From an uncultured Chromatiales bacterium (lineage in GTDB: Bacteria > Bacteroidota > Ignavibacteria > SZUA-365): 64,000 nucleotides of DNA. A program made the translations under genes and the position numbers. Numbering within the stretch: the stretch's first letter is position 1; each line of letters opens with the position of its first letter. Location of the stretch: positions 821 to 64,820 of the forward strand of contig CAZWNO010000004.1 of NCBI GenBank assembly GCA_964635845.1, given 5' to 3'. Positions 47,775 through 61,383 of the stretch are shown here, piece after piece. The notes beneath the pieces were generated by a model that made no database searches, had not been told where the DNA came from, and saw only the letters and a list, made by a program, of their open reading frames with translations.

Positions 47775-49114
47775 AACTCTGGGATAAGGGCGGCAAGACC
47801 GACGAAAGGATCCATCGCTTCACCGTGGGCCGCGATCCTGCATTCGATCTGCAGCTCGCCGAATACGACGTGCTCGGTTCCCTGGCCCACGCACGCATGC
47901 TTCAGGAGTGCGGAATACTGAGCGGCGAAGTGTGGCGCGCCGTCGAAGCCGGGCTGCAGTCCATCTACCGCGCGATCGCGGACGGGACCTTCGTCATCGA
48001 GGACGGGATCGAGGATGTGCATTCGCAGATCGAGCTGCTGCTCACGCGCGGCGCGGGCGAGGCGGGGAAGAGCATCCATGCCGCGCGCTCGCGCAACGAT
48101 CAGGTGCTGCTCGACCTGAAGCTGTATCTCCGCGATCGCATACGCGACATCGTCGGCGAGGTCGCCCTGCTGGCCGGCGAGCTGCTCGACCGCAGCGACC
48201 GCCACGCGGCGGTCATGCTGCCCGGGTACACGCACGGACAGGCGGCGATGCCGTCGTCGTTCGGCCTGTGGTTCGCCGCGCATGCCGAGAGTCTCGCGGA
48301 GGACCTCATCCCGCTCCATGCGGCGTACCGTATCGCCGACCGCAATCCTCTCGGATCCGCGGCGGGATATGGATCCTCGTTCCCGATCGACCGCGACCGC
48401 ACGACCGCGCTGCTCGGCTTCGAGGCGATGCATGTGAATGCGATCGATGCGCAGCTGAGCCGCGGAAAGACCGAGCGCATCGCGGCGCAGGGCTTATCCT
48501 CCGTGGCGGCATCGCTCGCGCGCTTCGCCGCCGATGTGTGCATGTATGTCTCGGGAAACCATGGATTTCTCCGTCTCCGCGAGGAAATCACGACGGGATC
48601 GAGCATCATGCCGCACAAGCGCAATCCCGACGTCTTCGAACTGATCCGCGCGCGCTGCAACCGCATACAGGCCGTGCCGGGCGACATCGCGATGAGCATG
48701 ATCAATCTCCCATCGGGATACCATCGCGACCTGCAGATCATCAAGGAACTGCTGTTCCCCGCCATTGAGGAACTGCGCGACTGCCTGCGCATCGCGCGCC
48801 ACGCCCTCGCGTTCCTCGAAGTGACGGAGGGATTGCTCGACGATCCGCGCTATCGGGACATCTTCAGCGTCGACGCCATCCAGCAGTGCATGGCCGGCGG
48901 AATGACATTCCGCGATGCGTACCGCGAAGTCGCGGCGAGTCTGCAGGATGGAAGCTTCACGATTCCGGAGTCGCCGGGGTCCACCCATCAGGGCAGTCCG
49001 GGCTATCTCTGCAACGACCGCATCCGCGCGATGCTTTCGGATGAGGTCGCCCGATTCCCCTTCGCACGCCGCGACGAGGCCTTCCGTACGCTGCTGACGC
49101 CAGCCACCTGCTGA
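47771..49114 (+). CDS. argH: Argininosuccinate lyase
   Basis: GSSIMPHKRNPD fumarase/lyase signature. Start at MKLWDKGGK overlaps the argE stop. Confidence 0.9.
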   Translation: MKLWDKGGKTDERIHRFTVGRDPAFDLQLAEYDVLGSLAHARMLQECGILSGEVWRAVEAGLQSIYRAIADGTFVIEDGIEDVHSQIELLLTRGAGEAGKSIHAARSRNDQVLLDLKLYLRDRIRDIVGEVALLAGELLDRSDRHAAVMLPGYTHGQAAMPSSFGLWFAAHAESLAEDLIPLHAAYRIADRNPLGSAAGYGSSFPIDRDRTTALLGFEAMHVNAIDAQLSRGKTERIAAQGLSSVAASLARFAADVCMYVSGNHGFLRLREEITTGSSIMPHKRNPDVFELIRARCNRIQAVPGDIAMSMINLPSGYHRDLQIIKELLFPAIEELRDCLRIARHALAFLEVTEGLLDDPRYRDIFSVDAIQQCMAGGMTFRDAYREVAASLQDGSFTIPESPGSTHQGSPGYLCNDRIRAMLSDEVARFPFARRDEAFRTLLTPATC

Positions 49115-49180
49115 TGCCTCGCACCTGCCGATGCCTCGCACCTGCTGATGCCTGGCGTCTGCTGATGTCTGGCGCCTGGA
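49100..49180. repeat. Tandem repeat, ~17-bp unit cacctgcYgatgcctcg, about 4.5 copies, overlapping and following the argH stop
   Basis: Direct reading. Confidence 0.8.
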
Positions 49181-49348
49181 TGGTCGCGAGTCATGTGCCG
49201 CCATAGCCTGCGCGGTGACAGGGAACCCGACCTCGCCCATCGAGAGCGGATATTTGGGAAAATTCGGATATTGCGTCGGAACAACGGCAATCACTTCAGG
49301 TATACCGATGCTGGGCTGTTGCTTTCGCATTTCACTTTCGAGGATTGC

Positions 49349-49837
49349 ATGCGGCGATTCATTCACACACTGACCCTGCTGTTCTTCATCGCTTCGACCG
49401 GGTGGAGCCAGACATACAGCGGCATCATCACCGGCGAGTATGTCCGCCGCCACTTCAAGCTCAAGGCTGGCGAGGTGGTGAAATTCGAGGAGTTCAAGAC
49501 GAAGACTTTTCCGACCGCCACCGTGGTCTGGGGAAAACCCGACAGGGGCGACGAGATGCGCATCAAGGCCGGGGTGGCGCCGGCGGGCAGCAAGTTGATG
49601 GTGGTCTTCACCGAGATCAAGTCGGAAAAGGAATTCGACCGCGTGCTCGGAACCTACAAGGACGGAGAGCCGGTCAAGGGAGTCGGCCGCAAAGCCGTCT
49701 GGTCGGAGAAGTGGAAGCAGCTGACCGTGCTGCTCTCGCCCAGACTCCTGATTCATGTGCATCTCGATAACCCCGGCACGACGAACCTGAAAGCTTCGCT
49801 CGTCGCCGTGGCGAGGGACATCGACAGGAAGCTCTGA
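49349..49837 (+). CDS. Small secreted hypothetical protein
   Basis: Signal peptide MRRFIHTLTLLFFIASTGWSQ. No recognised motifs. Confidence 0.5.
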   Translation: MRRFIHTLTLLFFIASTGWSQTYSGIITGEYVRRHFKLKAGEVVKFEEFKTKTFPTATVVWGKPDRGDEMRIKAGVAPAGSKLMVVFTEIKSEKEFDRVLGTYKDGEPVKGVGRKAVWSEKWKQLTVLLSPRLLIHVHLDNPGTTNLKASLVAVARDIDRKL

Positions 49838-50216
49838 TCCCGGCTTCTCGCCGGCGGACAGGTCCGGAGCCGGCGCATGATTCTCCTCGATTGACGGGTC
49901 CAAACTCTTGATATTCTGAAACTTTGCATGTAGTTTTCACGCGCACCCATCGGACGACCTCCAAATGGAAAATAAGATCGTCCGCCCCATCCTCGCCTGA
50001 ATCAACACGCACCTTCGCCGCCTCGCTTCCGGGGCCGATACGCACATCCGGAACAGATCCATTTCTCGAGGATCGCTTCCCTCGGTGTCCATTCGCCATG
50101 GACTGAGCAGCATGTACCGGGCAGATCCGCTGCCCGCCGTATCCGTGATCCACACCCGCCATTTCCGGAGTAATTTTATGGACAATATCCTCAATCCGCC
50201 GTATCGCAGTGAAGCG

Positions 50217-50930
50217 ATGCGGTTCCAGACCGCCCGAACGCCGCGGCGCGGAGGTCTTGCGATCCTGATGTCCCTGCTTCTGCTGATCTCGACGAATGCG
50301 GGCGCGCAGACGGTGTCCCATCCGGCGGCCGAGATCACGACGGCGGCGAAGCATTACACCTATGTGCACATGCTCTCCGCGACAGAGAAAAAGGATATCG
50401 AATACATCATTGTCCGCGCCTCGGACGGTGAGATCAAGACGGTCTTCAACGCCTGCGACGTCTGCTACCTTGCGGACAAAGGGTATTCGCAAAGCGGCAG
50501 CGATCTCCGCTGCAACAATTGCGGCAACCGGTTCGCCATCGACACGCTCGGCGGGAAGAACACGGCCGGCACCTGCCACCCCGGCTACCTGCCGCACCGC
50601 ATCGAGGGCGATCAGGTCGTGATCGACGTCGCCGACCTCATTGTCGGCGCCTATTATTTCAAGACGCAGACCGTGACCGGCATCGGTGTGCGGGAGGAGG
50701 CTCCGGCCGCATTTTCCATCCTGCAGAATCGGCAGGAACTGACGGTAATCCTGCCCGGCAGCGGGCACCGCGAGTTCCGCATCTTTTCGATCAACGGACA
50801 GCTCCGCAGATCCTTCACCGACGCATCCCGCGTCGTGAGGATTCCCCTGCAGGGCATGATCCCGGGTGCGTATGTGCTCGCCGTCGTCGATGCGGCGACG
50901 ATGAATTCGAAAGTGTTTCTGGTCCATTGA
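50217..50930 (+). CDS. Secreted Cys-rich protein resembling the FtrD/DUF2318 metal-binding domain, with a T9SS C-terminal domain
   Basis: Signal peptide. NACDVCYLADKGYSQSGSDLRCNNCGNRFAIDTLGGKNTAGTCHPGYLP is a CxxC..CxxC..C pattern. C-terminal FRIFSINGQL..GAYVLAVVD..KVFLVH has the T9SS tail pattern. Confidence 0.5.
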   Translation: MRFQTARTPRRGGLAILMSLLLLISTNAGAQTVSHPAAEITTAAKHYTYVHMLSATEKKDIEYIIVRASDGEIKTVFNACDVCYLADKGYSQSGSDLRCNNCGNRFAIDTLGGKNTAGTCHPGYLPHRIEGDQVVIDVADLIVGAYYFKTQTVTGIGVREEAPAAFSILQNRQELTVILPGSGHREFRIFSINGQLRRSFTDASRVVRIPLQGMIPGAYVLAVVDAATMNSKVFLVH

Positions 50931-50965
50931 CACATTCACCGCAGTCCCCATTCACGCGAGGCAAT

Positions 50966-51601
50966 ATGAAATCGCAATTGCTCCTCCTTTCCTCTTTATT
51001 TCTAATCCTTCTCGGCTGCTCCGAGGAAAGCACGAATCCGAATACCGACGCCGAGACGAGTGTCCCGGAAATCCGGAGCCTGACTGCGGAGAAGACGCAG
51101 ATCCTCTATGGCGGACAGGACCCGGCGGTCATCACCTGCGATGCGACAGGCGGCAACCTGACCTATGTATGGGAAGTCGATCTCGGCGACATCATCCCGA
51201 TGAATGCCTCCCGCTCGAAAGTGAGCTTCAACGGCAGCGCCTGCTGTGTGGGGGAGAAAGTGATCACCTGCACTGTGTCGAATGCGAAGGGCAGCGCGTC
51301 CAGGTCCATCGTCATCACCATTCTCGAGGTCGTCAATCCGCCCGAGATCATCGCACTCGAGGCCGACAGGACGGAAATCCATGAAGGGGAGGCCGCTTCC
51401 CTCGTCTGCTACGCGATCGGGGGGAACCTGAAGTACGCGTGGGCGAGCGACTGCGGCGCGCTGACCATCGATGCGAACGACAACTCGAAGGCGACGATGG
51501 CCGCCACGGCGGAATGCAGGGGAACGCGCACGGTCACCTGCACCGTCTCCAATGAAAAGGGGACGGACGTGAAGACGATGCAGATCTCGATTGCGGATTG
51601 A
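50966..51601 (+). CDS. Lipoprotein with two Ig-like ~70-aa repeats
   Basis: Lipobox LILLGC|SEE. Internal duplication ..GGNLTYVWEVD..CTVSNAKGSASRSIVITI / ..GGNLKYAWASD..CTVSNEKGTDVKTMQISI. Confidence 0.55.
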   Translation: MKSQLLLLSSLFLILLGCSEESTNPNTDAETSVPEIRSLTAEKTQILYGGQDPAVITCDATGGNLTYVWEVDLGDIIPMNASRSKVSFNGSACCVGEKVITCTVSNAKGSASRSIVITILEVVNPPEIIALEADRTEIHEGEAASLVCYAIGGNLKYAWASDCGALTIDANDNSKATMAATAECRGTRTVTCTVSNEKGTDVKTMQISIAD

Positions 51602-51623
51602 TCGAATAAAGGAGCGCCCTATC

Positions 51624-52961
51624 ATGAAACTGCCGGTACTGCTCCTGGGCATGCTCGTGCTCAACGGGCTCCGCTGCGAGACGCACGCACAGTGCTGCAC
51701 GGCGGGGAATCCCGTGAACACGAACTGCACGCTGACCACGGACGGTGCGCATCTGCTCAACGTCTCCTGGTCGTATATGTACTCCCAGTCCAACGCCTAC
51801 TACCGCGGCACGCAGCGGCTCGACAGGGAGTACGCCGAGAGCCGCTACGACTACGCCTCGCTGGCGCTCTCCTATGCGGTCTCGGACAGGCTGAGACTCA
51901 CAGCGGATCTCGGGTACTATTTCGACAAGTCGCAGCGGTTCGTCCAGAGTGATTACACGCGATATGCACAGGGGATTTCGGATGCGACCTTCGGCATCGG
52001 GTATGGTACCTATTCCACCGATGACGGGCTTTTCGAACTCGTGCAGACCGCGCGCGTGACCATTCCCGTCGGAAAATTCGATCAGGAGTATGACGGCGTC
52101 GTGCTGCCCATCGATTTTCAGCCGTCCTCGGGCAATTACCGGTATAGCCTCGGACTGATTCTGAGCAAGCGATTCGAGGACAGCGATTTCGCGCTCATGT
52201 CCTTCAACTCCGTCGAGTTCTCGCAGGCGATCGAGACACGGAATACCTATCATAAATACGGCAACCTCTATCTCGCGTCCGTCATGGGGACATATCGCAT
52301 CACGCCTACGCTCCTTGCATTGCTTCAGCTGCGCTGGGAAATGCGCGACAGGGCGCTGAACGGAACGACCGGTATCGGAGCAGCGTCGACGAATCAATAC
52401 TCCTTCCTGAACTCCTCCGGAGGGGTCATCGCCTATGTCGCCCCGCAGGCGGCGGTCAATCTCTTCAATGACTGGCAGTTCTCCATCCAGTACAACTATC
52501 CGATCTACAGGAATATCTACGGCGAGGAACAGCTGACCAACCGGCATTCCGTGACACTCGGCCTCTCGCGCGTCATCGATCTCGGAGGGAGCGGCGGCGC
52601 TGGTGAGATGGAAGGCACGGGTGCGATGGAAAGCGCGGGTGCGATGGAAGGCACGGGTGCGATGGAAGGCACGGGTGCGATGGAAGGCGCGGGCGGCGCG
52701 CTGCACTCCGCCACCGTCCATGTCCGCGGGAACTGCGATATGTGCAAGGATCGGATCGAATCCGTCGCCGGAGCGCAGGCGTATGTCCACACGGCGAAGT
52801 GGGAGTCCGCCACCGAGACGCTCACGCTGTACTACGAGGAACACCTCCCCGACATCGACGGGATAGAAAAGGCGCTCGCCGAATCGGGTCATGACACTGA
52901 TTCCCATACGGCTCCCGACGATGTATATAATCATCTCCCGGAGTGCTGCCAGTACCGCTGA
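51624..52961 (+). CDS. Outer-membrane beta-barrel protein fused to a Met-rich hexapeptide repeat and a C-terminal HMA-like (CxxC) metal-binding domain
   Basis: Signal peptide. Alternating amphipathic strands ending ..VTLGLSRVI. (AMEGTG)x5 repeat. TVHVRGNCDMCKDRIE..GHD has the HMA betaalphabetabetaalphabeta layout with a CDMC motif. GGAG RBS. Confidence 0.55.
   Translation: MKLPVLLLGMLVLNGLRCETHAQCCTAGNPVNTNCTLTTDGAHLLNVSWSYMYSQSNAYYRGTQRLDREYAESRYDYASLALSYAVSDRLRLTADLGYYFDKSQRFVQSDYTRYAQGISDATFGIGYGTYSTDDGLFELVQTARVTIPVGKFDQEYDGVVLPIDFQPSSGNYRYSLGLILSKRFEDSDFALMSFNSVEFSQAIETRNTYHKYGNLYLASVMGTYRITPTLLALLQLRWEMRDRALNGTTGIGAASTNQYSFLNSSGGVIAYVAPQAAVNLFNDWQFSIQYNYPIYRNIYGEEQLTNRHSVTLGLSRVIDLGGSGGAGEMEGTGAMESAGAMEGTGAMEGTGAMEGAGGALHSATVHVRGNCDMCKDRIESVAGAQAYVHTAKWESATETLTLYYEEHLPDIDGIEKALAESGHDTDSHTAPDDVYNHLPECCQYR
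52603..52700. repeat. Coding tandem repeat, 18-bp unit ggtgcgatggaaggcacg, about 5 copies (Met-rich AMEGTG)
   Basis: Direct reading. Lies inside CDS 51624..52961. Confidence 0.85.
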
Positions 52962-53156
52962 TCCCATCCACCTCCGGATTTCCCGACCTGCTATTCACCT
53001 ACCTGATGTGATTGTAAACACATATCGCGCGGTCGGAGAGAGCCGCAAATATCATGCGGACCTGTTGTAAAAAAAGCGCGATCTGCATATACTATATCAT
53101 CAACTATCCCGCATCAGACGGGTGACCGTCGTTCACATACATGAAAGGATCAATCC

Positions 53157-53909
53157 ATGTACAGATTCCCCGTGCTTCTTGTCGGAGCACTGTTCGCGCT
53201 GTTTGTCATCACCGCCTGCGACGAGGACGATCCCGCCCAGCCCGCACAGCCAGTCACGCACGACGGACAGAGTGTCGCACTGGGACAGGGTCAGGTCACG
53301 GCCTACGAACGTGTCGCAGCGGACGGTACGCTGCTCGCCGTCGGCGTCCGTTTCAGTGAAGGCGCATTGAACGAACTGCCGGATACCGATACCCCGGTGT
53401 CCCTCACGCTCCCGAAGAAGGCGGCGAATTCGCCGTATCAGAGCGCCAGTTTCGACTGGAATCCTCACGGGCATTTTCCCACGCCGATCTACGGACTGGC
53501 GCATTTCGACGTCCATTTCTACGTGGTCGATGAACAGGCGCGCGCCGCGGTCGTACCCGGACCGGATCTTGTTCCGCCCGCAGCCCAGTACATGCCGCAG
53601 GACTACATGTCCGCCGTCGATGCCGTCCCGAACATGGGCACGCATTACATAGACAGCACCGCGGCGGAACTTCACGGCGCCGCGTTCGACAAGACCTTCA
53701 TCTACGGTTTCTATCAAGGAGACCTGTATTTCTTCGAACCGATGATCACGAAGGCGTTCTTCGAAACGAAGCCGAATGTCACCGTCGATATCAAGCAGCC
53801 CGCCGCGTTCAAGGTCACGGGCAAGGCATATCCGAAAAAATACACGGTGAGTTATGACTCCGCGCGCAAGGAATACTCCGTCGAACTGACGGACATGCAG
53901 CTGCGCTGA
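53157..53909 (+). CDS. Hypothetical lipoprotein
   Basis: Lipobox FVITAC|DEDD. His-containing segment NPHGHFP..HFDVHFY. Probable sigma70 promoter ttgtaa-17-tatact at about 53065..53095. Confidence 0.5.
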   Translation: MYRFPVLLVGALFALFVITACDEDDPAQPAQPVTHDGQSVALGQGQVTAYERVAADGTLLAVGVRFSEGALNELPDTDTPVSLTLPKKAANSPYQSASFDWNPHGHFPTPIYGLAHFDVHFYVVDEQARAAVVPGPDLVPPAAQYMPQDYMSAVDAVPNMGTHYIDSTAAELHGAAFDKTFIYGFYQGDLYFFEPMITKAFFETKPNVTVDIKQPAAFKVTGKAYPKKYTVSYDSARKEYSVELTDMQLR

Positions 53910-54065: not shown

Positions 54066-55826
54066 ATGCGCGGAGCTGGCGTGGAGATTCCGGCGTTGAC
54101 AGAGAAGCTGGCGGTCCGGATATTCAAGGGATTCGAGACCTACCTCGTGCGTTTCCGCGCCGTGACGAGGAGGGCCAGGAAGCGTTTCGAGACGATGGAC
54201 TGGCGGCGCGGTCGGCAGGACGCGATCGATCGGCTGGGGATTTACGATGATTGCATCGCGGAAGCAACACGAGCCCTCCATGTCATGCTCGACGGGATTC
54301 CTGATCCTGAAGCCGACTGGCCGCTGGTGAAGCAGGCGTATTCCGATCGCGTGGGGGACCGCTGTGACAGGGATATCGCGGAGACCTTCTTCAATTCCGT
54401 GACGCGCAAGGTCTTCAATACCACGGGTATCGACCGGACGACGGAGTTCATCCGCCTCGATCCCCCGGAGCAGCTGACGGCATTCTGTACCGACCTGTTC
54501 ACGAAATATGAAGGGCAGACCGACGCGACGATACTGATCTGGCTGGTCCTGTCACAGCATGCGTTCCGCATCCCCTACGCCAATCTCGCGCGCGACATCA
54601 CGCGGGTGGCGAACGAGATCAACCTGTTTCTCTGGCCTCTGACGAGAAAGCATGCGGAGTACACGGCGGAAATCCTCAACCACGTGTTCTTCAGGAACAA
54701 GGTCGCCTATATCATCGGACGCATGCAGATCGATGCACATACCGTACCGCTCATCCTTCCGATGTACAACAGCGAGGATGGCATCTATATCGACGCGGTG
54801 CTGCTGACGCGCGCCGACGTCAATAATATCTTCGGTTTCGCGTATTCGTATTTCCATGTCGAGACGGACGCGCCGAACGATCTGGTGCATTTCCTGCAGT
54901 CGATGCTTCCCGGGAAACCGATTTCCGAGATATACAACTCCATCGGATACAACAAGCACGGGAAGACCGAATTCTACAGGGATCTGCACCGCCACGTGCA
55001 CATCGAAAACGAGAAATTCGTGCTCGCACCCGGACTGGAAGGCGCGGTGATGATCGTGTACACGCAGCCCCATTATCCGTACGTGTTCAAGGTGATCAAG
55101 GACAGGCCGTGCTTCCTCCGCTCGACGCGGCTCACGAACAAATCGATCACCGCCGATCAGGTGAAGGCTCGGTACCGTTTCGTCAGCAGCCGCGACCGCG
55201 TCGGCCGCCTCGTGGACACGCAGGAGTTCGAGAGCATCCGCTTCCGGCTGGAGCGGTACGACGACGAAGTCGTGAACGAATTCGCGCTGGCCGCCCGTGA
55301 AACGGTACGGGTGGTGGACGGGTACCTCATCATCGACCACTGCTACATCCAGAGGAAAGTCGTCCCCCTGCCGATCTTCCTGGAAACGGAGACTTCGCCG
55401 GAACATATACGCCAGATACTGCTGGATTTCGGGTATTTCATCAAGGACCTCGCCGGGACGGGACTCTTTCCGGTGGACCTGTTCAACAAATGGAATTACG
55501 GTGTCGGCGAACGGAGCAGGGTGGTGCTCTACGACTATGACGACATCATGCCGCTCGAGAGCGTCAGTTTCCATGTCAAGCCGAAGCCGCGCGACGAGTA
55601 TGAGGAATACCAGTCCGATGAGGATCGCATCACCGCTGATGAAAATGATTTTTTCATGGACGAGATCGAGACCTGGCTCGGGATCCCGACACCGCTCAAG
55701 GGGATCTTCGACGCGGTGCACCGCGACCTGTATACGAAAGAATTCTGGGAGCGTACACAGCGGAGCGTCCGCCGCGGGGAGGTCGTCGATATCTTCCCCT
55801 ACGACCGCGGCAAACGCTTCAGCTGA
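54066..55826 (+). CDS. aceK: Isocitrate dehydrogenase kinase/phosphatase
   Basis: Collinear with E. coli AceK: RFETMDW, DIAETFFNSV, TEFYRD, VFKVIKDR, DRVGRLVDTQEF, YIQRKVVPLPIFLE, VVLYDYDDI, C-terminal GKRFS. Confidence 0.85.
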   Translation: MRGAGVEIPALTEKLAVRIFKGFETYLVRFRAVTRRARKRFETMDWRRGRQDAIDRLGIYDDCIAEATRALHVMLDGIPDPEADWPLVKQAYSDRVGDRCDRDIAETFFNSVTRKVFNTTGIDRTTEFIRLDPPEQLTAFCTDLFTKYEGQTDATILIWLVLSQHAFRIPYANLARDITRVANEINLFLWPLTRKHAEYTAEILNHVFFRNKVAYIIGRMQIDAHTVPLILPMYNSEDGIYIDAVLLTRADVNNIFGFAYSYFHVETDAPNDLVHFLQSMLPGKPISEIYNSIGYNKHGKTEFYRDLHRHVHIENEKFVLAPGLEGAVMIVYTQPHYPYVFKVIKDRPCFLRSTRLTNKSITADQVKARYRFVSSRDRVGRLVDTQEFESIRFRLERYDDEVVNEFALAARETVRVVDGYLIIDHCYIQRKVVPLPIFLETETSPEHIRQILLDFGYFIKDLAGTGLFPVDLFNKWNYGVGERSRVVLYDYDDIMPLESVSFHVKPKPRDEYEEYQSDEDRITADENDFFMDEIETWLGIPTPLKGIFDAVHRDLYTKEFWERTQRSVRRGEVVDIFPYDRGKRFS

Positions 55827-55964: not shown

Positions 55965-56310
55965 TGGCCCTATTGACTTTTGCATGTCGTATACGGATAT
56001 TTTGGAGCAACAATATCCGTTAGCCTTAAACAGAAGAGTCATGTTACACGTCGCGTGTATCGCGAGACGCTTCTGCTTCTCCGGGTAGTTTCGAGCAGGA
56101 TAGCCGTTCCTGATCATGGTCCCCGAATGCGGGGGAGGACGGCACGTCTCAGATGTCTGCTCAAGAGGTCTGTTTCTATCCGGAATATGAACATCCAATC
56201 AATGCACTTCGGCGCATACGTGAATGCAATGCGTCGTGTGAGGGGCCATGCTGTCATGGCCCCGGAAATGGAACTTCAACTATCCATCCAATCAGAGTCG
56301 AGGACACAGT

Positions 56311-59300
56311 ATGAGACGATGTACGACGCCATGGGGACTGTTGCTGATGCTGATCAGCCTGTCAGTCCCCATTCACGCACAGACCGGCTGGGGCGTGGAC
56401 AGATACGAGGGCTTCAAGGCCGACACGGCCGGCAATGGGACCCTCAGCTATTCATGGTCCACGGGCAATCTCGGCAATACCTGGAACGAGGGGGAGTGGG
56501 TCCCATACATGCTGACGTTGAAGAACGTCAACATCAACAACCCCGCATTCAGCGACATCACGGTCTGCTATGACTTCACCCGTGGCAATCTCGACGCCCG
56601 ATTCATCGATCTTGTGCGCAGCGTCCAGATCGGCACGGTCGTGCGGAGCAACAGCCAGGGCTGGCCGATGGACTCCTCCGGTGCGGCATATCCCATGACC
56701 ACGAGAGCCGAGCTGGAAACCGCCCAGAATTCACAGGGACTCACCCAGTGGGGCACGGAGTACTTCTGGGCAGGATATGAACTTCTTCACCCGGATACAT
56801 CGCGAACAAACAGGTCCACGACGGGAGGGATCGGCGCGCCCGACGATGCGACGCGCTGCTTCACGATCACCCGGCAGGATATCATCGACGCGTATGGCGG
56901 AATCAACAATGTGCCGAACACGAGCACATTCTATATTTATTTCCAGCTGCATGAAGCGCAGACCTTCGTCTGGAACAACACACTTCAGTCGCAGCTGAAC
57001 CAGTTTCCGACCGACCAGTGGGGAGGCTACCTCTATGGAATCGCGCCGTTCAGCACCGACCAGCGACAGGGTTCAGGATTCGTTTCCGGCGCCTCGGGAC
57101 ACACCTACCTGACGCTCGGGAACAAGACAGTCCCCATCCCGATTCCGCCACAGCCCGCGGGACAGCTTTCCGGTCTGAAGTGGCATGACATCAACGGAAA
57201 TCAGGTACAGGATGGCAGTGAAACCGTACTCGACGGCTGGCCGATTTACATCTCGACCATCATCGGCAACCTGCCGATTTCCGACACCGTTCTCACGAAC
57301 GGCGCGGGATCGTGGACGATCACGGGGCTCCCGCAGGCACTCTACCTGGTCAGCGAGGAACTCGGGAACGCACCGACCACGGGAGCCTCGGCGGGGTATA
57401 CGAATGCCGCGCCCGCGTTCGCCCAGAATCCCCCTTCGGAATGGGTACAGACCTATCCCGATGCCAATTCGATAGGTGCGAACATCGATGGAGTTCCTAC
57501 CACCCCGGCGGGAATTCTGCTCGGCCAGGGGCCGTTCTCCTGGGAAGTCGATCTCACGAATTCCGTCACGGCCGGATTGATCGATTTCGGGAATCATGTG
57601 CCGGCTCCAGTCTGCGCCGTGTTTCCCGCGGATACGACCATCTGCGACGAATCGCAGGTGACGCTCACCGCGCAGCGGATCGCACAGGGCACGCCGCCCT
57701 ACAGCTATCTCTGGTCGGGACCCAACAGTTTCAGCGCCACCACACAGAGTATCGTCGTCCCGGCTTCCGCCGCGGGCACATATACTGTCGTGCTCACCGA
57801 TGCCAACGGACTCAGCTCCACCGGATGTTCCGGAACGGTGAACGTCTTCCCGATTCCGGATTTCGAAATCGCGGGAGACAGCGTCGTCTGCGCGCTCACG
57901 TCGTCGCACACATACCGGGCATCGTTCGATCCGAACTCTCCGGTTCCCATCGATTCCATTGTTTCCTGGCAGTGGGCGATCAGCGGAAACGGCACGATTA
58001 CTTCGGGTACGACCGATGATTCGGTGACGGTGAGTTCCACTGGCGCCGGATCCTTCATACTGACCCTGACCGTCGTCGATGTCTACGGCTGCTCGGAGAC
58101 AGTGACACGGACGATCACCGTGCAGGCGAATCCGGTCTGCTCGATCACTCCGGTCGGCGATGTCTGTCCGGGTTCGACCGGCAATGTCTTCAGCGGTCCC
58201 GCCGGAGCGTACACCTATCTCTGGGGTATCAGCGGCAACGGCAGCATCAATGGCAGCATCAATAATCCGACCGTCAGCGTGGATGCCGGCGTCGCCCTCG
58301 GCTCCTTCACCCTCACGCTGACCATCACGGAGACGAGCTTCCCCTTCTGTACCAGCACCTGTTCGCTGCTGGTCGAGGTCCGGGACATCACCCCTCCCGT
58401 CATCAGCTGCGCGGTGGACACGACCATCGAATGTCCCGTCCCGGCGACGCTTCCCTTCACGACGCCCACGGCGACGGACAATTGTGATCCGAATCCGGGA
58501 GTCGTGATCAGCAACACGGTGGTCACTCCCGGTCAGTGTCCAAGCGAGTACAGCGTGAGCCGCACCTGGGTCGCGACCGATGTGTACGGCAACAAGGACA
58601 GCTGCTCGCAGACGATCCACGTCATCGACACCACGGCGCCCACCGTCACTCCCGCATCCGATCTGATCGTCGAATGCGACGGCGCAGGCAACACGGCAGC
58701 CCTCAACGGCTGGCTCGCCAACCATGGCGGCGCCACGGCAGCCGATGCCTGCGGACAGGTGACCTGGAGCGATAACTTCACGGGGCTCTCGGATCTCTGC
58801 GGAGCCACCGGAAGCGCGACCGTGACGTTCTACGCCACGGACGACTGTGGCAACGTGGACTCGACCACGGCCACATTCCGCATTATCGATACGACTCCGC
58901 CCGTGGTGACTGCCGCCTCCGACACGACAGTCGAATGCGACGGCTCGGGCAACACGACGGAACTCAACAATTGGCTCACCAGCCATGGCGGAGCAACGGC
59001 CTCCGACGTGTGCGGATCCGTGACCTGGAGCAACAACTTCACCACGCTTTCGGACCTCTGCGGAGCCACCGGCAGTGCGACGGTGACCTTCTACGCAACC
59101 GACGACTGTGGAAATGTCGATTCGACATCCGCGACGTTCACGATCATCGATACGACTCCGCCCCTGGTGACCGCCGCCTCCGACACGACAGTCGAGTGCG
59201 ACGGCGCAGGCAACACGGCGGCCCTCAACAGCTGGCTCGCGAACCATGGCGGCGCAACCGCCACGGATGCGTGCTCCGGCGTCGTGTGGACCAACAGCTA

Positions 59301-61383
59301 CAATGCGCTCAACTTCGTCCCGACCTGCGGCGGAGCGGGCTTCGTCGATGTGACGTTTTACGCGACCGACGACTGCAACAATGTCGATTCGACCACCGCG
59401 CGCTTCACGATCGAGGACACCACGCCTCCGGATATAACGGTGGCGGCGCAGGACACGACAGTGGAATGCGACGGCGCCGGCAACACGGCTGCGCTCAACA
59501 GCTGGCTTGCCAACCATGGCGGCGCGGTTGCGGACGACGTGTGCTCCGACTTCGACTGGACGCATAATTTCACAGCCCTCAGCGACGGCTGCGGCGCCAC
59601 GGGCAGCGCGGCGGTGACGTTCTACGCCACCGACGACTGCGGCAACGTGGATTCGACCACGGCAACGTTCACGATCATCGATACGACACCACCGTCCATC
59701 TCGGCGGGAGTGATCGACACCTGTTTCTCCAATCAGGCGGATGCAGAGGCGGCCGCCATCGCGGCGACGACATCGAGCGATGTCTGCGGTGGAGTGACGC
59801 TGACGGCAAGCACGATCGGCGACTGTGACGCGATCATCACCGTGAGATCGACCGACGCCTGCGGCAATGCGGACTCGGTTTCCTACAACACGACGATCGA
59901 CGGCACTCCGCCGGTGTTCACCTACGTTCCCGCGGATACGTCCATCGAGTGCACCGAGACTCCGGTGTTCGGTACACCCACGGCCACGGACAACTGCATC
60001 ACCGTCGATGTCGTCCAGGTCGGACAGGATGTGACGACTCCGGGCGGCTGTCCGCAGGAGTACTCGGTCACCCGGACCTGGAAGGCGATCGACGGCTGCG
60101 GCAACCAGTCGCCGAACGTCAGCCAGACCATCTTCGTCGTCGACGACACTCCGCCCATTGTCACGGCGGCGCCTGACGACACGGTGGCATGCAGTCAGCC
60201 GGTCGTGTTCACCGATCCGACATACAGCGACAACTGCGACCCGAATCCGTCGCTGATCGTGGTGCGGGATACCGTGATCTATTCCAGCGGCATCTTCACC
60301 CACATCAAGTCGTGGCAGGCGATCGACGCATGCAATAACATCTCCGATACCGCCACTCAGACCATTTTCGAGATGTGCAACCAGTTCGAGACCCTTACGC
60401 AGGGCTTCTACGGAAACTCCGGCGGATCCTTCTGCGGCAACGGACTGGGCACGGCGGCATTGATCGATTCCCTGCTCGCCGCGAACGGTGACACGATCAT
60501 CGTCGGCGTCGACGGTTCCGGATCCCTCACAATGATCACGGGCGACGCGAACTGCGTGATCCGGTACCTGCCGGGCGGCGGAAAACCGACGGCGCTCAAG
60601 AGCGACTACCATTTCAACCAGAGCAACTGCAACATCATCCCGAACACCATGCCGCTCAACAAGCAGGGCAGGTTCAGCAATATCCTTCTTTCGCAGACCA
60701 TCACGCTGGCCCTGAACCTGAGACTGGACACACTGCTCACGACCTCATTCTACCTGCCGGATCCTTCGACACCGTGGATGAGGACGGAAGGCGCGGACTA
60801 TGTCAACGGCATCTGCGGTGATGGCGACGATCTGCCCGACAGCACGTTCATGAGCTTCTATTTCCCGCCCAGCGTGCTGAGCGCTCTCGGGTCGAATGGA
60901 ACGAACAGGACTGCCGCGGATCTGCTCGCCATGGCGAATCAGGCGCTTGCCGGCACCACCTTCCCGGGTGTGTCGCTCGCCGATATCGTTGCCGCAATCG
61001 ACGCAATCAACAAGGGCTTCGATGAAGCCAGATTCTTCAGCGGATACTACGTCACTCCTCCGCCGAAAGCGGCGAGCGCCGATGTTCTGCCGACTGGATT
61101 CGAACTTCATCAGAACCACCCGAATCCGTTCAACCCCGTGACGACGATCACCTATACCCTGCCGGAGCGCAGCACCGTCTATCTCGCGGTGTACAACTCC
61201 CTCGGTGAGGAAGTCGCCGTCCTCGTGAACGGAGAAATGCCCTCCGGTACCCATGGCGTCACCTGGAATGCCGGCATGGCGCTAGGCAACATCGCGACCG
61301 GCGTGTTCACCTATCGCATCCACGCGACGAGTGAGGACGGCACGGTATTCCACGATCAGCGGAAGATGATGCTGGTCAAATAA
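56311..61383 (+). CDS. Giant (1,691 aa) secreted adhesin-like protein with an SdrD/Cna-B-like domain, at least 6 HYR-like Ig repeats and a T9SS C-terminal domain
   Basis: Signal peptide MRRCTTPWGLLLMLISLSVPIHAQ. Repeated ~90-aa units DTTPPxVTAASDTTVECDG.GNTAALN.WL..HGGATA.D.CG.VTW..NF..L...CGATGSA.VTFYATDDCGNVDS. C-terminal NHPNPFNPVTTITYTLP..GVFTYRI. Preceded by a ~340-nt leader with a perfect hairpin gggccatg-ctgt-catggccc at 56243..56263. Confidence 0.75.
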   Translation: MRRCTTPWGLLLMLISLSVPIHAQTGWGVDRYEGFKADTAGNGTLSYSWSTGNLGNTWNEGEWVPYMLTLKNVNINNPAFSDITVCYDFTRGNLDARFIDLVRSVQIGTVVRSNSQGWPMDSSGAAYPMTTRAELETAQNSQGLTQWGTEYFWAGYELLHPDTSRTNRSTTGGIGAPDDATRCFTITRQDIIDAYGGINNVPNTSTFYIYFQLHEAQTFVWNNTLQSQLNQFPTDQWGGYLYGIAPFSTDQRQGSGFVSGASGHTYLTLGNKTVPIPIPPQPAGQLSGLKWHDINGNQVQDGSETVLDGWPIYISTIIGNLPISDTVLTNGAGSWTITGLPQALYLVSEELGNAPTTGASAGYTNAAPAFAQNPPSEWVQTYPDANSIGANIDGVPTTPAGILLGQGPFSWEVDLTNSVTAGLIDFGNHVPAPVCAVFPADTTICDESQVTLTAQRIAQGTPPYSYLWSGPNSFSATTQSIVVPASAAGTYTVVLTDANGLSSTGCSGTVNVFPIPDFEIAGDSVVCALTSSHTYRASFDPNSPVPIDSIVSWQWAISGNGTITSGTTDDSVTVSSTGAGSFILTLTVVDVYGCSETVTRTITVQANPVCSITPVGDVCPGSTGNVFSGPAGAYTYLWGISGNGSINGSINNPTVSVDAGVALGSFTLTLTITETSFPFCTSTCSLLVEVRDITPPVISCAVDTTIECPVPATLPFTTPTATDNCDPNPGVVISNTVVTPGQCPSEYSVSRTWVATDVYGNKDSCSQTIHVIDTTAPTVTPASDLIVECDGAGNTAALNGWLANHGGATAADACGQVTWSDNFTGLSDLCGATGSATVTFYATDDCGNVDSTTATFRIIDTTPPVVTAASDTTVECDGSGNTTELNNWLTSHGGATASDVCGSVTWSNNFTTLSDLCGATGSATVTFYATDDCGNVDSTSATFTIIDTTPPLVTAASDTTVECDGAGNTAALNSWLANHGGATATDACSGVVWTNSYNALNFVPTCGGAGFVDVTFYATDDCNNVDSTTARFTIEDTTPPDITVAAQDTTVECDGAGNTAALNSWLANHGGAVADDVCSDFDWTHNFTALSDGCGATGSAAVTFYATDDCGNVDSTTATFTIIDTTPPSISAGVIDTCFSNQADAEAAAIAATTSSDVCGGVTLTASTIGDCDAIITVRSTDACGNADSVSYNTTIDGTPPVFTYVPADTSIECTETPVFGTPTATDNCITVDVVQVGQDVTTPGGCPQEYSVTRTWKAIDGCGNQSPNVSQTIFVVDDTPPIVTAAPDDTVACSQPVVFTDPTYSDNCDPNPSLIVVRDTVIYSSGIFTHIKSWQAIDACNNISDTATQTIFEMCNQFETLTQGFYGNSGGSFCGNGLGTAALIDSLLAANGDTIIVGVDGSGSLTMITGDANCVIRYLPGGGKPTALKSDYHFNQSNCNIIPNTMPLNKQGRFSNILLSQTITLALNLRLDTLLTTSFYLPDPSTPWMRTEGADYVNGICGDGDDLPDSTFMSFYFPPSVLSALGSNGTNRTAADLLAMANQALAGTTFPGVSLADIVAAIDAINKGFDEARFFSGYYVTPPPKAASADVLPTGFELHQNHPNPFNPVTTITYTLPERSTVYLAVYNSLGEEVAVLVNGEMPSGTHGVTWNAGMALGNIATGVFTYRIHATSEDGTVFHDQRKMMLVK

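Follow-up and report, generated by a model that had tools for sequence, protein, structure and literature searches.

A conserved outer-membrane module of a cysteine-paired barrel, a dithiol lipoprotein and a predicted type IX-secreted protein as a candidate for copper handling in Bacteroidota and related phyla

The passage of copper, silver and arsenic species through the outer membrane is, to our knowledge, poorly understood, and we know of nothing described for this step in Bacteroidota-like phyla. The question is raised by a locus on contig CAZWNO010000004.1 of an uncultured bacterium of the Ignavibacteria (assembly GCA_964635845.1), from which we analysed a stretch of 64 kb, termed the window, and within it the plus strand between positions 49349 and 53000. 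An initial annotation of this DNA had described four co-directional genes there as a candidate metal-handling outer-membrane module, and re-translation of the listed coordinates bore out the four open reading frames, g1 to g4 (Table 1), with the start of g2 more probably at 50178. Our proposal is that the products of g2, g3 and g4 act together at the outer membrane as a module of three parts that handles a thiophilic metal and serves in export-side handling of Cu(I), a reading to which we give a probability of roughly 0.45. Cu(I) is the most likely metal, with Ag(I) possibly handled as well and arsenic possibly by related versions of the module.

The central component is g4, which had been read as a porin-like barrel joined by a linker to a CxxC HMA domain. 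This architecture is borne out by an AlphaFold2 model built on the homologue alignment (overall predicted local distance difference test score, pLDDT, of 80.8, with about 90 in the barrel and about 95 in the HMA domain). DSSP assigns 12 strands to the model across residues 44-319, the linker falls below pLDDT 50 at residues 323-358, and the C-terminal part (residues 361-445) shows the beta-alpha-beta-beta-alpha-beta order of the HMA fold, with strand 361-367, helix 372-383, strands 390-394 and 399-404, helix 411-420 and a short final strand. Foldseek matches the barrel to the COG4313 channel Pput2725 (4rl8; E 1e-12, TM score 0.79) and to FapF (5o65; TM score 0.77). Profile searches on g4 by itself gave less than had been expected of them: a single-sequence scan found no Pfam match, hence neither PF00403 nor PF13557, CopZ appeared only at E 0.097 and phmmer against the PDB gave E of about 1. 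Single-sequence searches being uninformative, family-level profiles were needed, and at that level both domains emerge. The 62 homologues of g4, about 50 of them full length and drawn from metagenome-assembled genomes (MAGs) of Bacteroidota, Ignavibacteriota and Kapabacteria, carry precomputed matches to PF13557 and/or PF00403. When 31 of them were scanned, HMA (PF00403) was found in 23 and Phenol_MetA_deg (PF13557) in 11 at E up to 0.01, the precomputed PF13557 matches being flagged as weak and g4 of the window itself remaining unmatched.

A profile of 26 C-terminal domains matches CopZ (6ff2, 1.2e-09), the CopA N-terminus (1p6t, 1.9e-19) and ATP7B (4.4e-23), and because these matches to solved HMA domains span profile positions 4-75 of 90, the C-terminus of g4 is a true HMA domain followed by an extension of about 15 residues, which together we name HMA-CC. 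In the profile C14, C17, G65, D67, Y78, C84 and C85 are invariant and H66 is conserved to at least 90%. The CDMC pair singled out by the initial annotation corresponds to C371 and C374, both invariant in the alignment of g4 homologues, and the domain also carries G422-H423-D424. HMA-CC shares its fold and the position of its CxxC with CopZ, MerP and the N-termini of CopA and ATP7B, but differs from canonical HMA domains in having the motif GNC(D/E)MC instead of GMTCxxC, in the replacement of Tyr or Phe by His-Asp and in the extension with its invariant terminal Cys-Cys. In contrast to all of these proteins, it is found fused to outer-membrane barrels, TonB-dependent receptors, CusB adaptors and type IX secretion system (T9SS) tails. 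HMA-CC is predicted to bind Cu(I) or another metal.

The other end of g4 also carries a cysteine pair. The signal peptide ends ..THA|QCC, and the QCCxAGN motif that opens the mature protein is present in 81 of 83 barrels, a strong conservation that fits a structural role. In Pput2725 the N-terminal 14 residues, before strand 1, fill the lumen from the periplasmic side (PMC4493636), and by analogy the QCC segment of g4 would occlude the barrel lumen. Since an even-stranded barrel has both of its ends in the periplasm, with the N-terminus on the periplasmic side, the model would likewise place the HMA-CC domain in the periplasm. Beyond the shared 12-stranded barrel, g4 differs from Pput2725 and FapF in its sequence (about 13% identity), in the invariant QCCxAGN and the C-terminal HMA fusion, and in that its family stands among metal(loid) genes and not among genes of aromatic catabolism or amyloid formation. 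It might be argued that g4 is a COG4313 channel like any other and passes some small hydrophobic compound, that the HMA domain gates or regulates it as a metal sensor, and that g2 and g3 are unrelated surface proteins. COG4313 channels have indeed been implicated in taking up hydrophobic molecules (PMC4493636), and barrel-only paralogues of g4 exist. Against this stand the invariant Cys-Cys on the lumen-side N-terminus, the pairing of a dithiol lipoprotein with the barrel in nearly every locus, barrel-only ones included, and a census of neighbouring genes in which catabolic genes do not recur, and we regard this explanation as highly improbable.

The closest functional precedent for g4 is PcoB, where an outer-membrane barrel carries a disordered periplasmic region that is rich in His and Met and on which Cu efflux depends (PMC12509749); a structural study argued that PcoB facilitates uptake, the direction of transport being debated (PMC9210255). 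Like PcoB and CopB, g4 is an outer-membrane barrel that occurs in copper-resistance contexts, it has a periplasmic region that is disordered and little conserved and that abounds in Cu ligands, and its direction of transport is debatable too. It gave no match to CopB (PF05275) at E up to 1 and is not a member of that family, although it may work like PcoB. The two differ further in that g4 has a COG4313-like barrel, its appendage is C-terminal and ends in a folded HMA domain, the ligands are Cys and not His or Met, and the module has further parts, a dithiol lipoprotein as obligate partner and a cargo of the T9SS. The Met-rich tract is confined to this lineage.

That lipoprotein partner is g3. 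Far from being the bystander for which it had been taken, it belongs to a family with an invariant dithiol, and a custom hidden Markov model (HMM) shows the gene of this lipoprotein to lie directly before that of the barrel in 85 of 88 fetched loci. The two domains of g3 are recognized as PKD (25.5 bits against a cut-off of 23.5) and Ig_2 (5.9e-06). The vicinal pair is present as CC in domain 1 of 15 of the 16 two-domain lipoproteins and in 52 of 65 single-domain members, the other 13 having CxSC at the same position. Among 72 family members the lipobox Cys is followed by a C-x-K-(D/E)-(D/E) pattern, with K at +3 in 83%, D/E at +4 in 56% and D/E at +5 in 39%; this resembles the Bacteroidota lipoprotein export signal (LES), K-(D/E)2 or Q-A-(D/E)2 after the Cys (PMC5080379). 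In g3 of the window LLGC is followed by SEES, which is acidic and has no K. Judging from the LES-like signal, g3 is probably flipped to the cell surface. A lipoprotein of this kind encoded beside its barrel recalls the Sus-like pairs of Bacteroidota, from which the present pair differs in its small, 12-stranded, TonB-independent barrel, in a lipoprotein that is an Ig-fold dithiol protein of 120-210 residues and not SusD-like, and in that no glycan genes are involved. The second Ig domain is found wherever an FtrD-like protein is present, and elsewhere only on contigs truncated upstream; it may be a docking site for the FtrD-like protein.

The FtrD-like protein of the window is g2, and the proposal that this T9SS cargo is related to FtrD/DUF2318 proteins holds, with a match to PF10080 at 1.3e-22 (80.3 bits against a cut-off of 26.3). 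All 33 of its homologues match PF10080, and 13 of the 33 additionally match PF18962. The ATG at 50178 is the more likely start, because homologues are 250-251 residues long and an identical contig (L090) carries a 250-aa gene call. In an AlphaFold2 model (pLDDT 83) g2 has two domains, of which the Cys domain adopts a Rieske-ferredoxin fold with CxxC-15 residues-CxxC, a spacing that parallels the Rieske CxH..CxxH motif with Cys in place of His. Its five Cys are invariant across 22 aligned sequences. Like FetA and FtrD (FetA: PMC10783030), g2 passes the PF10080 threshold and has five conserved Cys including two CxxC; unlike them it is soluble, with a signal peptide as its single N-terminal hydrophobic segment and a T9SS domain, and is not part of a polytopic inner-membrane protein. 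Export by the T9SS would display g2 on the surface or release it. In the T9SS slot of the module there is either an FtrD-like protein or one with HMA-CC, an argument for metal binding by g2.

The fold of g2 invites another explanation, that no metal is transported at all and that the cysteines instead relay electrons, or exchange thiols and disulfides, across the outer membrane. In such a relay g2 would be a redox protein outside the cell, with an Fe-S cluster on its Rieske fold, and the relay might for example reduce extracellular substrates or keep surface thiols reduced. The sole literature on this domain concerns the periplasmic DUF2318 of Campylobacter FetA, the function of which is unknown and for which a redox role was proposed (PMC10783030). 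Such a relay would also accommodate the replacement of CC by CxxC in one lipoprotein subfamily and the CcdA/DsbD-like membrane protein, thioredoxin-fold protein and rhodanese that adjoin barrel-only cassettes. It does not readily explain why the gene slot of g2 can be taken by an HMA-CC domain, which has a metal-binding and not a redox fold; the outer membrane offers no evident electron donor, and the copper and arsenic contexts described below point to metal(loid) substrates. We consider a redox relay very unlikely.

The module is not confined to the window. A scan of one genome per species gave 79 further loci, all in MAGs. All loci were searched with custom HMMs for the four parts, and the non-redundant set comprises 83 loci. 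Of the four-gene module first suggested, g2, g3 and g4 form a conserved neighbourhood and constitute the module, with the lipoprotein and barrel (g3 and g4) as its near-universal core. The membership of g1 was rejected, as was that of g5, since both are syntenic only in the closest lineage and other genes intervene in locus L001, where a GH26 gene separates g1 from g2; g1 has no family match in Pfam or single-sequence searches. The 83 loci fall into five classes. Class A, to which the window belongs, combines an FtrD-like T9SS protein, a two-domain lipoprotein and the barrel-HMA fusion (13 loci); class B has an HMA-CC T9SS protein, a one-domain lipoprotein and barrel-HMA (6 loci); class C has lipoprotein and barrel-HMA (7 loci); class D has an HMA-CC T9SS protein, lipoprotein and a barrel without HMA (9 loci); and class E, with 48 loci, has only lipoprotein and barrel. 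All of the Cys residues to which the initial annotation had drawn attention are invariant among homologues, a conservation far beyond chance.

When searched against 1.84 billion representatives, the barrel-HMA profile retrieves 206 clusters at E up to 1e-30 and 2,336 at E up to 1e-10, and the best 150 clusters include about 17 barrel-HMA proteins, about 90 barrel-only proteins and many proteins with multiple HMA-CC domains. The barrel-HMA fusion had been thought undescribed. The searchable literature contains nothing on the architecture, nor on an outer-membrane component in the ars or cus islands of Bacteroidota, and searches on T9SS, HMA and copper, on ArsF/ArsG and the outer membrane of Bacteroidetes, and on the MetA pathway and arsenic found nothing relevant. 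The fusion is, however, not unique to this genome, occurring in about 50 clusters at 90% identity. Source annotations read only 'hypothetical', 'transporter', 'ATPase', 'HMA domain-containing protein' or 'DUF2318 domain-containing protein'. The domains are all of known kinds; what is new is their combination, the invariant Cys-Cys motifs and the two-gene core.

Which metal does the module handle? In the window its neighbours include genes of arginine biosynthesis, glycosidase genes, the TTHB210-like lipoprotein g5 and AceK, so the copper assignment rests on relatives. In L003 (Kapabacteria) and L005 (Ignavibacteria) the module trails cusA-cusC-cusB co-directionally and with short gaps. The resistance-nodulation-division (RND) pumps of these two loci match TIGR00914 with 1088 bits and, aligned to E. 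coli CusA, keep both M573/M623/M672 and the D405/E939/K984 relay; the pump of L035 also retains the Met triad. In CusA the triad is the Cu(I)/Ag(I) site, and a methionine relay operates there (PMC8092243); an assignment of the adjacent pumps as CzcA-type Zn/Co/Cd pumps was rejected, the Met triad being present. L005, L012 and L031 represent three lineages in which CueP lies directly downstream of the module, the L003 module is adjoined by a CueO-like oxidase that bears a T9SS tail, and the HMA-CC domain is fused to CusB-type adaptors that carry HMBD. A Pfam census of the 131 nearest neighbours of 30 class A-D loci counted Crp/Fnr regulators (10), T9SS tails (10), TonB-dependent receptors (4), CusB-type adaptors (4), HMBD (4) and CueP (3). 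The copper families are the only recurring metal-specific ones among these neighbours, and none of the ars, mer, Zn or Fe families recurs. The suggestion of copper handling therefore stands, copper being the best-supported metal by virtue of the Met-triad pumps, CueP and the CueO-like oxidase that flank the module in relatives. The suggested link to Ftr-type metal-uptake loci was rejected: unlike Ftr and FetMP loci, the module has no recurring Ftr1 or P19-type genes next to it in the neighbour census, and in other lineages an HMA-CC domain substitutes for the FtrD-like domain. A mercury system was also rejected, as neither merA, merR nor merT is among the recurrent neighbour clusters or Pfam families of the 83 loci, and neighbour cluster c22, tried as a P-type ATPase, is a TonB-dependent receptor.

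The barrel-only branch has a different setting. Among the 48 class E loci the cassette lies inside arsenic islands, with ArsR/SmtB in 36, an ArsF-like thioredoxin-fold protein in 31, ArsG (CcdA/DsbD-like) in 29, an ArsP/SaoE-like permease in 28, rhodanese in 26, ArsC in 20, ACR3 in 17 and ArsM in 12. This setting supports the alternative that the substrate is another thiophilic one, As(III) or methylarsenite, Hg(II), Cd(II) or Zn(II), and that the copper genes near some modules reflect mixed metal islands, since both the QCC and the dithiol of the lipoprotein recur in the barrel-only relatives. Pairs of vicinal Cys are typical ligands of As(III) and Hg(II), as in ArsD, MerT and MerA, and the invariant His-Asp by the HMA site together with a four-Cys site in g2 would suit Zn or Cd. 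But ars genes occur within 7 kb of none of the 35 HMA-bearing loci, and neither ars nor mer nor Zn families recur nearby; HMA-CC co-occurs with CusB, HMBD and CueP and not with ars genes, and the adjacent RND pumps carry the Cu/Ag-specific Met triad. For the HMA-bearing module another such thiophilic substrate is, in our judgement, quite improbable. The gene neighbourhoods suggest that the family overall tracks thiophilic metal(loid)s and that its HMA-bearing branch, including the window, tracks copper.

We hypothesize that the four cysteine sites form a thiol ligand-exchange chain, in which the metal would pass from the periplasmic HMA-CC (CxxC, His/Asp and CC) to the QCC in the lumen, on to the CC of the surface Ig domain and finally to the extracellular five-Cys protein, or in other lineages to an HMA-CC protein at the extracellular end. 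Transfer would be free of TonB and driven by an affinity gradient, and in the outward direction it would remove periplasmic Cu(I) delivered by CopA/CueP-type systems. Such a chain can be likened to the MerP-MerT-MerA cysteine relay, where the metal is handed over via HMA CxxC sites and vicinal Cys pairs. It also resembles the CusF-CusB-CusA methionine relay (PMC8092243) in the stepwise hand-over of a soft metal between paired ligands, although the Cus and Mer relays operate in the periplasm or inner membrane while the chain proposed here would cross the outer membrane and end on the surface. We lean towards the outward direction, because the informative contexts are resistance determinants (Cus, CueP and multicopper oxidase) and the sister clade lies in ArsR-controlled arsenic operons.

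The same hardware could also run inward, as a TonB-independent system of copper acquisition in which the T9SS protein captures scarce extracellular Cu, the lipoprotein and barrel pass it inward and the tethered HMA domain receives it in the periplasm for cuproenzymes. Its layout mirrors the nutrient-capture systems of Bacteroidota (PMC5080379), HMA-CC is fused to the periplasmic N-terminus of TonB-dependent receptors and such a receptor lies near the module in L017, L028 and L035, genes for CuA-type cupredoxins and NapH-like proteins are directly upstream in L012 and L014, an Fnr-like regulator is directly upstream of all nine class D loci, and the module of the window stands in a housekeeping neighbourhood and not in a resistance island. 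Against uptake, the L003 and L005 modules immediately follow a CusCBA efflux operon and are co-directional with it, the sister clade sits within operons for arsenic resistance, a setting in which import would work against the cell, and there is no energy coupling for accumulation. We judge copper acquisition unlikely, though it deserves weight.

Several points weigh against export-side Cu(I) handling as proposed here. The module of the window and of its closest relatives lies among arginine-biosynthesis and glycosidase genes with no metal genes nearby, and an explicit copper context is found in only about 5 of the 13 class A loci. Neither the genome scan nor the protein names revealed a cultured carrier, all 79 genome loci and all named protein matches coming from MAGs or metagenomes. 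TonB-dependent receptors are importers, and the HMA-CC fusions to their periplasmic N-terminus fit uptake better; a secreted binder, a surface lipoprotein and a barrel together make up the customary layout for capturing nutrients. Zn(II) or Cd(II) would likewise fit the extra His-Asp and four-Cys sites, and the Rieske-like fold modelled for g2 could hold an Fe-S cluster and act in redox chemistry rather than as a metal acceptor. The QCC segment lies within residues 15-39, for which pLDDT is below 50 in the g4 model, and the solved COG4313 channels are thought to carry hydrophobic molecules and not ions (PMC4493636).

More broadly, and more tentatively than for the module of the window, we put forward that the pair of dithiol lipoprotein and QCC barrel is the core of an unrecognized, TonB-independent, Cys-lined translocon for soft metal(loid)s in the outer membrane of the Fibrobacteres-Chlorobi-Bacteroidetes group, hosted by Bacteroidota, Ignavibacteriota and Kapabacteria and fitted with swappable accessories. 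The HMA-CC, FtrD-like or T9SS parts would then serve Cu(I)/Ag(I), and the bare pair As(III)/methylarsenite in ars operons; all of this together is a conjecture that we would sooner doubt than assert. The family is a concrete candidate for the outer-membrane step, being built on a small barrel, with invariant Cys pairs in its lumen-side N-terminus, in the lipoprotein that partners it and in its tethered chaperone domain. If the proposal is right, it fills a gap in these phyla by giving copper and arsenic detoxification a dedicated step at the outer membrane, it supplies a new outer-membrane component for models of metal(loid) resistance, and the T9SS gains a role in metal handling. It would also explain the function of the widespread HMA-CC domain (2,336 clusters, the non-barrel ones among the best 150 being HMA-CC proteins) and provide marker genes for copper and arsenic stress in metagenomic surveys of metal-impacted environments.

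Table 1. Positions in the window of the genes of the locus and of their sequence and structural features
Feature	Position	Strand	Description
g1	49349..49837	+	162 aa, secreted, hydrophobic N-terminus
g2	50178..50930	+	250 aa, secreted FtrD-like (DUF2318) protein with T9SS C-terminal sorting domain; alternative start 50217
g2 Cys cluster	50454..50576	+	CDVC-15 residues-CNNC-GTC(H)P; five invariant Cys, Rieske-type fold
g2 T9SS type A C-terminal sorting domain	50709..50927	+	PF18962/TIGR04183, beta-sandwich; present
g3	50966..51601	+	211 aa, lipoprotein, two Ig/PKD-like domains
g3 lipobox Cys	51017..51019	+	Cys18 of LLGC
g3 vicinal Cys pair	51242..51247	+	Cys93-Cys94, Ig domain 1
g4	51624..52961	+	445 aa, outer-membrane barrel-linker-HMA fusion
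g4 mature N-terminus	51690..51710	+	QCCTAGN, Cys24-Cys25; QCCxAGN family motif
g4 barrel	51753..52580	+	12-stranded beta-barrel, residues 44-319, COG4313/Phenol_MetA_deg type (DSSP, Foldseek)
g4 linker	52581..52697	+	disordered, Gly/Met/Glu, residues 320-358; pLDDT <50
18-bp tandem repeat	52602..52693	.	GGTGCGATGGAAGGCACG, 5.1 copies, 91% matches, Tandem Repeats Finder score 156; encodes (AMEGTG)n
g4 HMA-CC domain	52698..52958	+	C-terminal, ferredoxin-like HMA fold
HMA-CC CDMC pair	52734..52745	+	C371-x-x-C374
HMA-CC terminal Cys pair	52944..52949	+	C441-C442, within the extension Y..LP.CC.YR
g5	53157-53909		TTHB210-like lipoprotein (PF18197, 3.4e-11)

The Met-rich linker of g4 had been taken as a hallmark of copper handling. 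The 18-bp tandem repeat behind it is as first described, five units of AMEGTG within the encoded GEMEGTGAMESAGAMEGTGAMEGTGAMEGAG, yet it is not a feature of the family: in 29 of 31 aligned homologues the linker has 15-34 residues (about 19 in most) and at most one Met. Linker repeats are confined to g4 of the window, where 43 residues include 5 Met, and to P0001, the relative closest to it, where 74 residues include 7 Met, and the unit in P0001 is a different one in the same place, 21 bp in 7.8 copies (GDGEPMS). Both units hold one Met and acidic residues, which hints, from two cases only, at selection for a Cu-friendly tether. From these alignments the Met-rich repeat would be a lineage-specific elaboration of the tether that lies outside the core mechanism. 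An exact look-up of g4 returned no record, and JGI metagenome contigs yielded no exact match to the repeat junction. A look-up of g3 found two short-read contigs, L090 (SRR8925735) and L091 (SRR14117730), that match the window at 100% identity over 4665 and 3056 nt within 48001-52665. They come from independent sequencing runs and both stop at or inside the 18-bp array, which indicates that the repeat breaks assemblies and that the same strain was present in at least two samples.

Several features of the related loci stand beside these results. Upstream of the module in L012 (2797-8197), and in the same order in L014, is a conserved block that encodes a porin-like CxxCH protein, a Met-rich small lipoprotein, two CuA-type cupredoxins, one of which also contains a cytochrome c part, as well as a NapH-like ferredoxin membrane protein; the block may be an uncharacterized copper-dependent respiratory module. 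The Fnr-like Crp-family regulator immediately upstream of the class D loci (L025-L027, L029, L030, L034, L035, L039 and L043; e.g., L035 9072-9764) has an N-terminal Cys motif (e.g., HCCNCSMKSPLF) and may be a redox or metal sensor that controls the module. TonB-dependent receptors with two or three N-terminal HMA-CC domains, followed by CarboxypepD_reg, Plug and barrel, are represented by P0173, P0223, P0123, P0172 and P0197. A related receptor adjacent to the module (L017 6014-8263, L035 12718-14928 and L066 7379-9610) has a conserved (A)CC(N/S)L(S/A)ESF, another vicinal Cys pair, and beside it are Cys-rich proteins of 160-224 residues with CC pairs (CCCK, SCC and TCC; L017 5011-5685 and L035 12129-12611), the one in L017 without an NCBIfam match.

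The barrel-only cassette occurs in the ars islands of Bacteroidales and Flavobacteriales MAGs (L033 and L040-L088; e.g., L076 9584-10888, L048 3354-4660 and L066 9613-10957), between two groups of genes, the first made up of ArsR, the ArsF-like protein, ArsG, the ArsP-like permease and rhodanese and the second of ArsC, ArsM and ACR3, and it appears to be an undescribed outer-membrane component of ars operons. A secreted protein of about 245 residues that ends in GGCCPGGSSKGCK (cluster c16; L056 5126-5863) is found in eight ars-type loci, where its gene adjoins those of an FtsX-like permease and an ABC ATPase; it has no NCBIfam match.

Within the window itself the genes of the module are separated by short gaps, 35 nt between g2 and g3 and 22 nt between g3 and g4, and the flanking gaps are longer (340-380 nt between g1 and g2, depending on the start of g2, and 195 nt between g4 and g5). 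A scan for sigma-70 promoters and terminators across 49700..53300 gave counts at the level of shuffled sequence and was uninformative. Further downstream, positions 56248-61383 encode a secreted protein of 1711 residues with tandem protein repeats of about 95 residues (..DTTPP..ECDGAGNTAALN..ATDDCGN..), the C-terminus of which resembles a T9SS sorting domain (NHPNPFNPVTTITYTL...), with no match to T9SS HMMs at E up to 1e-3. Upstream of g1, a 17-bp tandem repeat, CACCTGCTGATGCCTCG, in 4.4 copies with 87% matches (49105-49178) runs from the 3' end of an argH-like gene into the intergenic region. Finally, the window encodes at 54066-55826 a full-length AceK, the bifunctional isocitrate dehydrogenase kinase/phosphatase (NF002804, 553.7 bits against a cut-off of 488), which is syntenic in L001; AceK is mostly known from Proteobacteria and is here found in a Bacteroidota-like genome.

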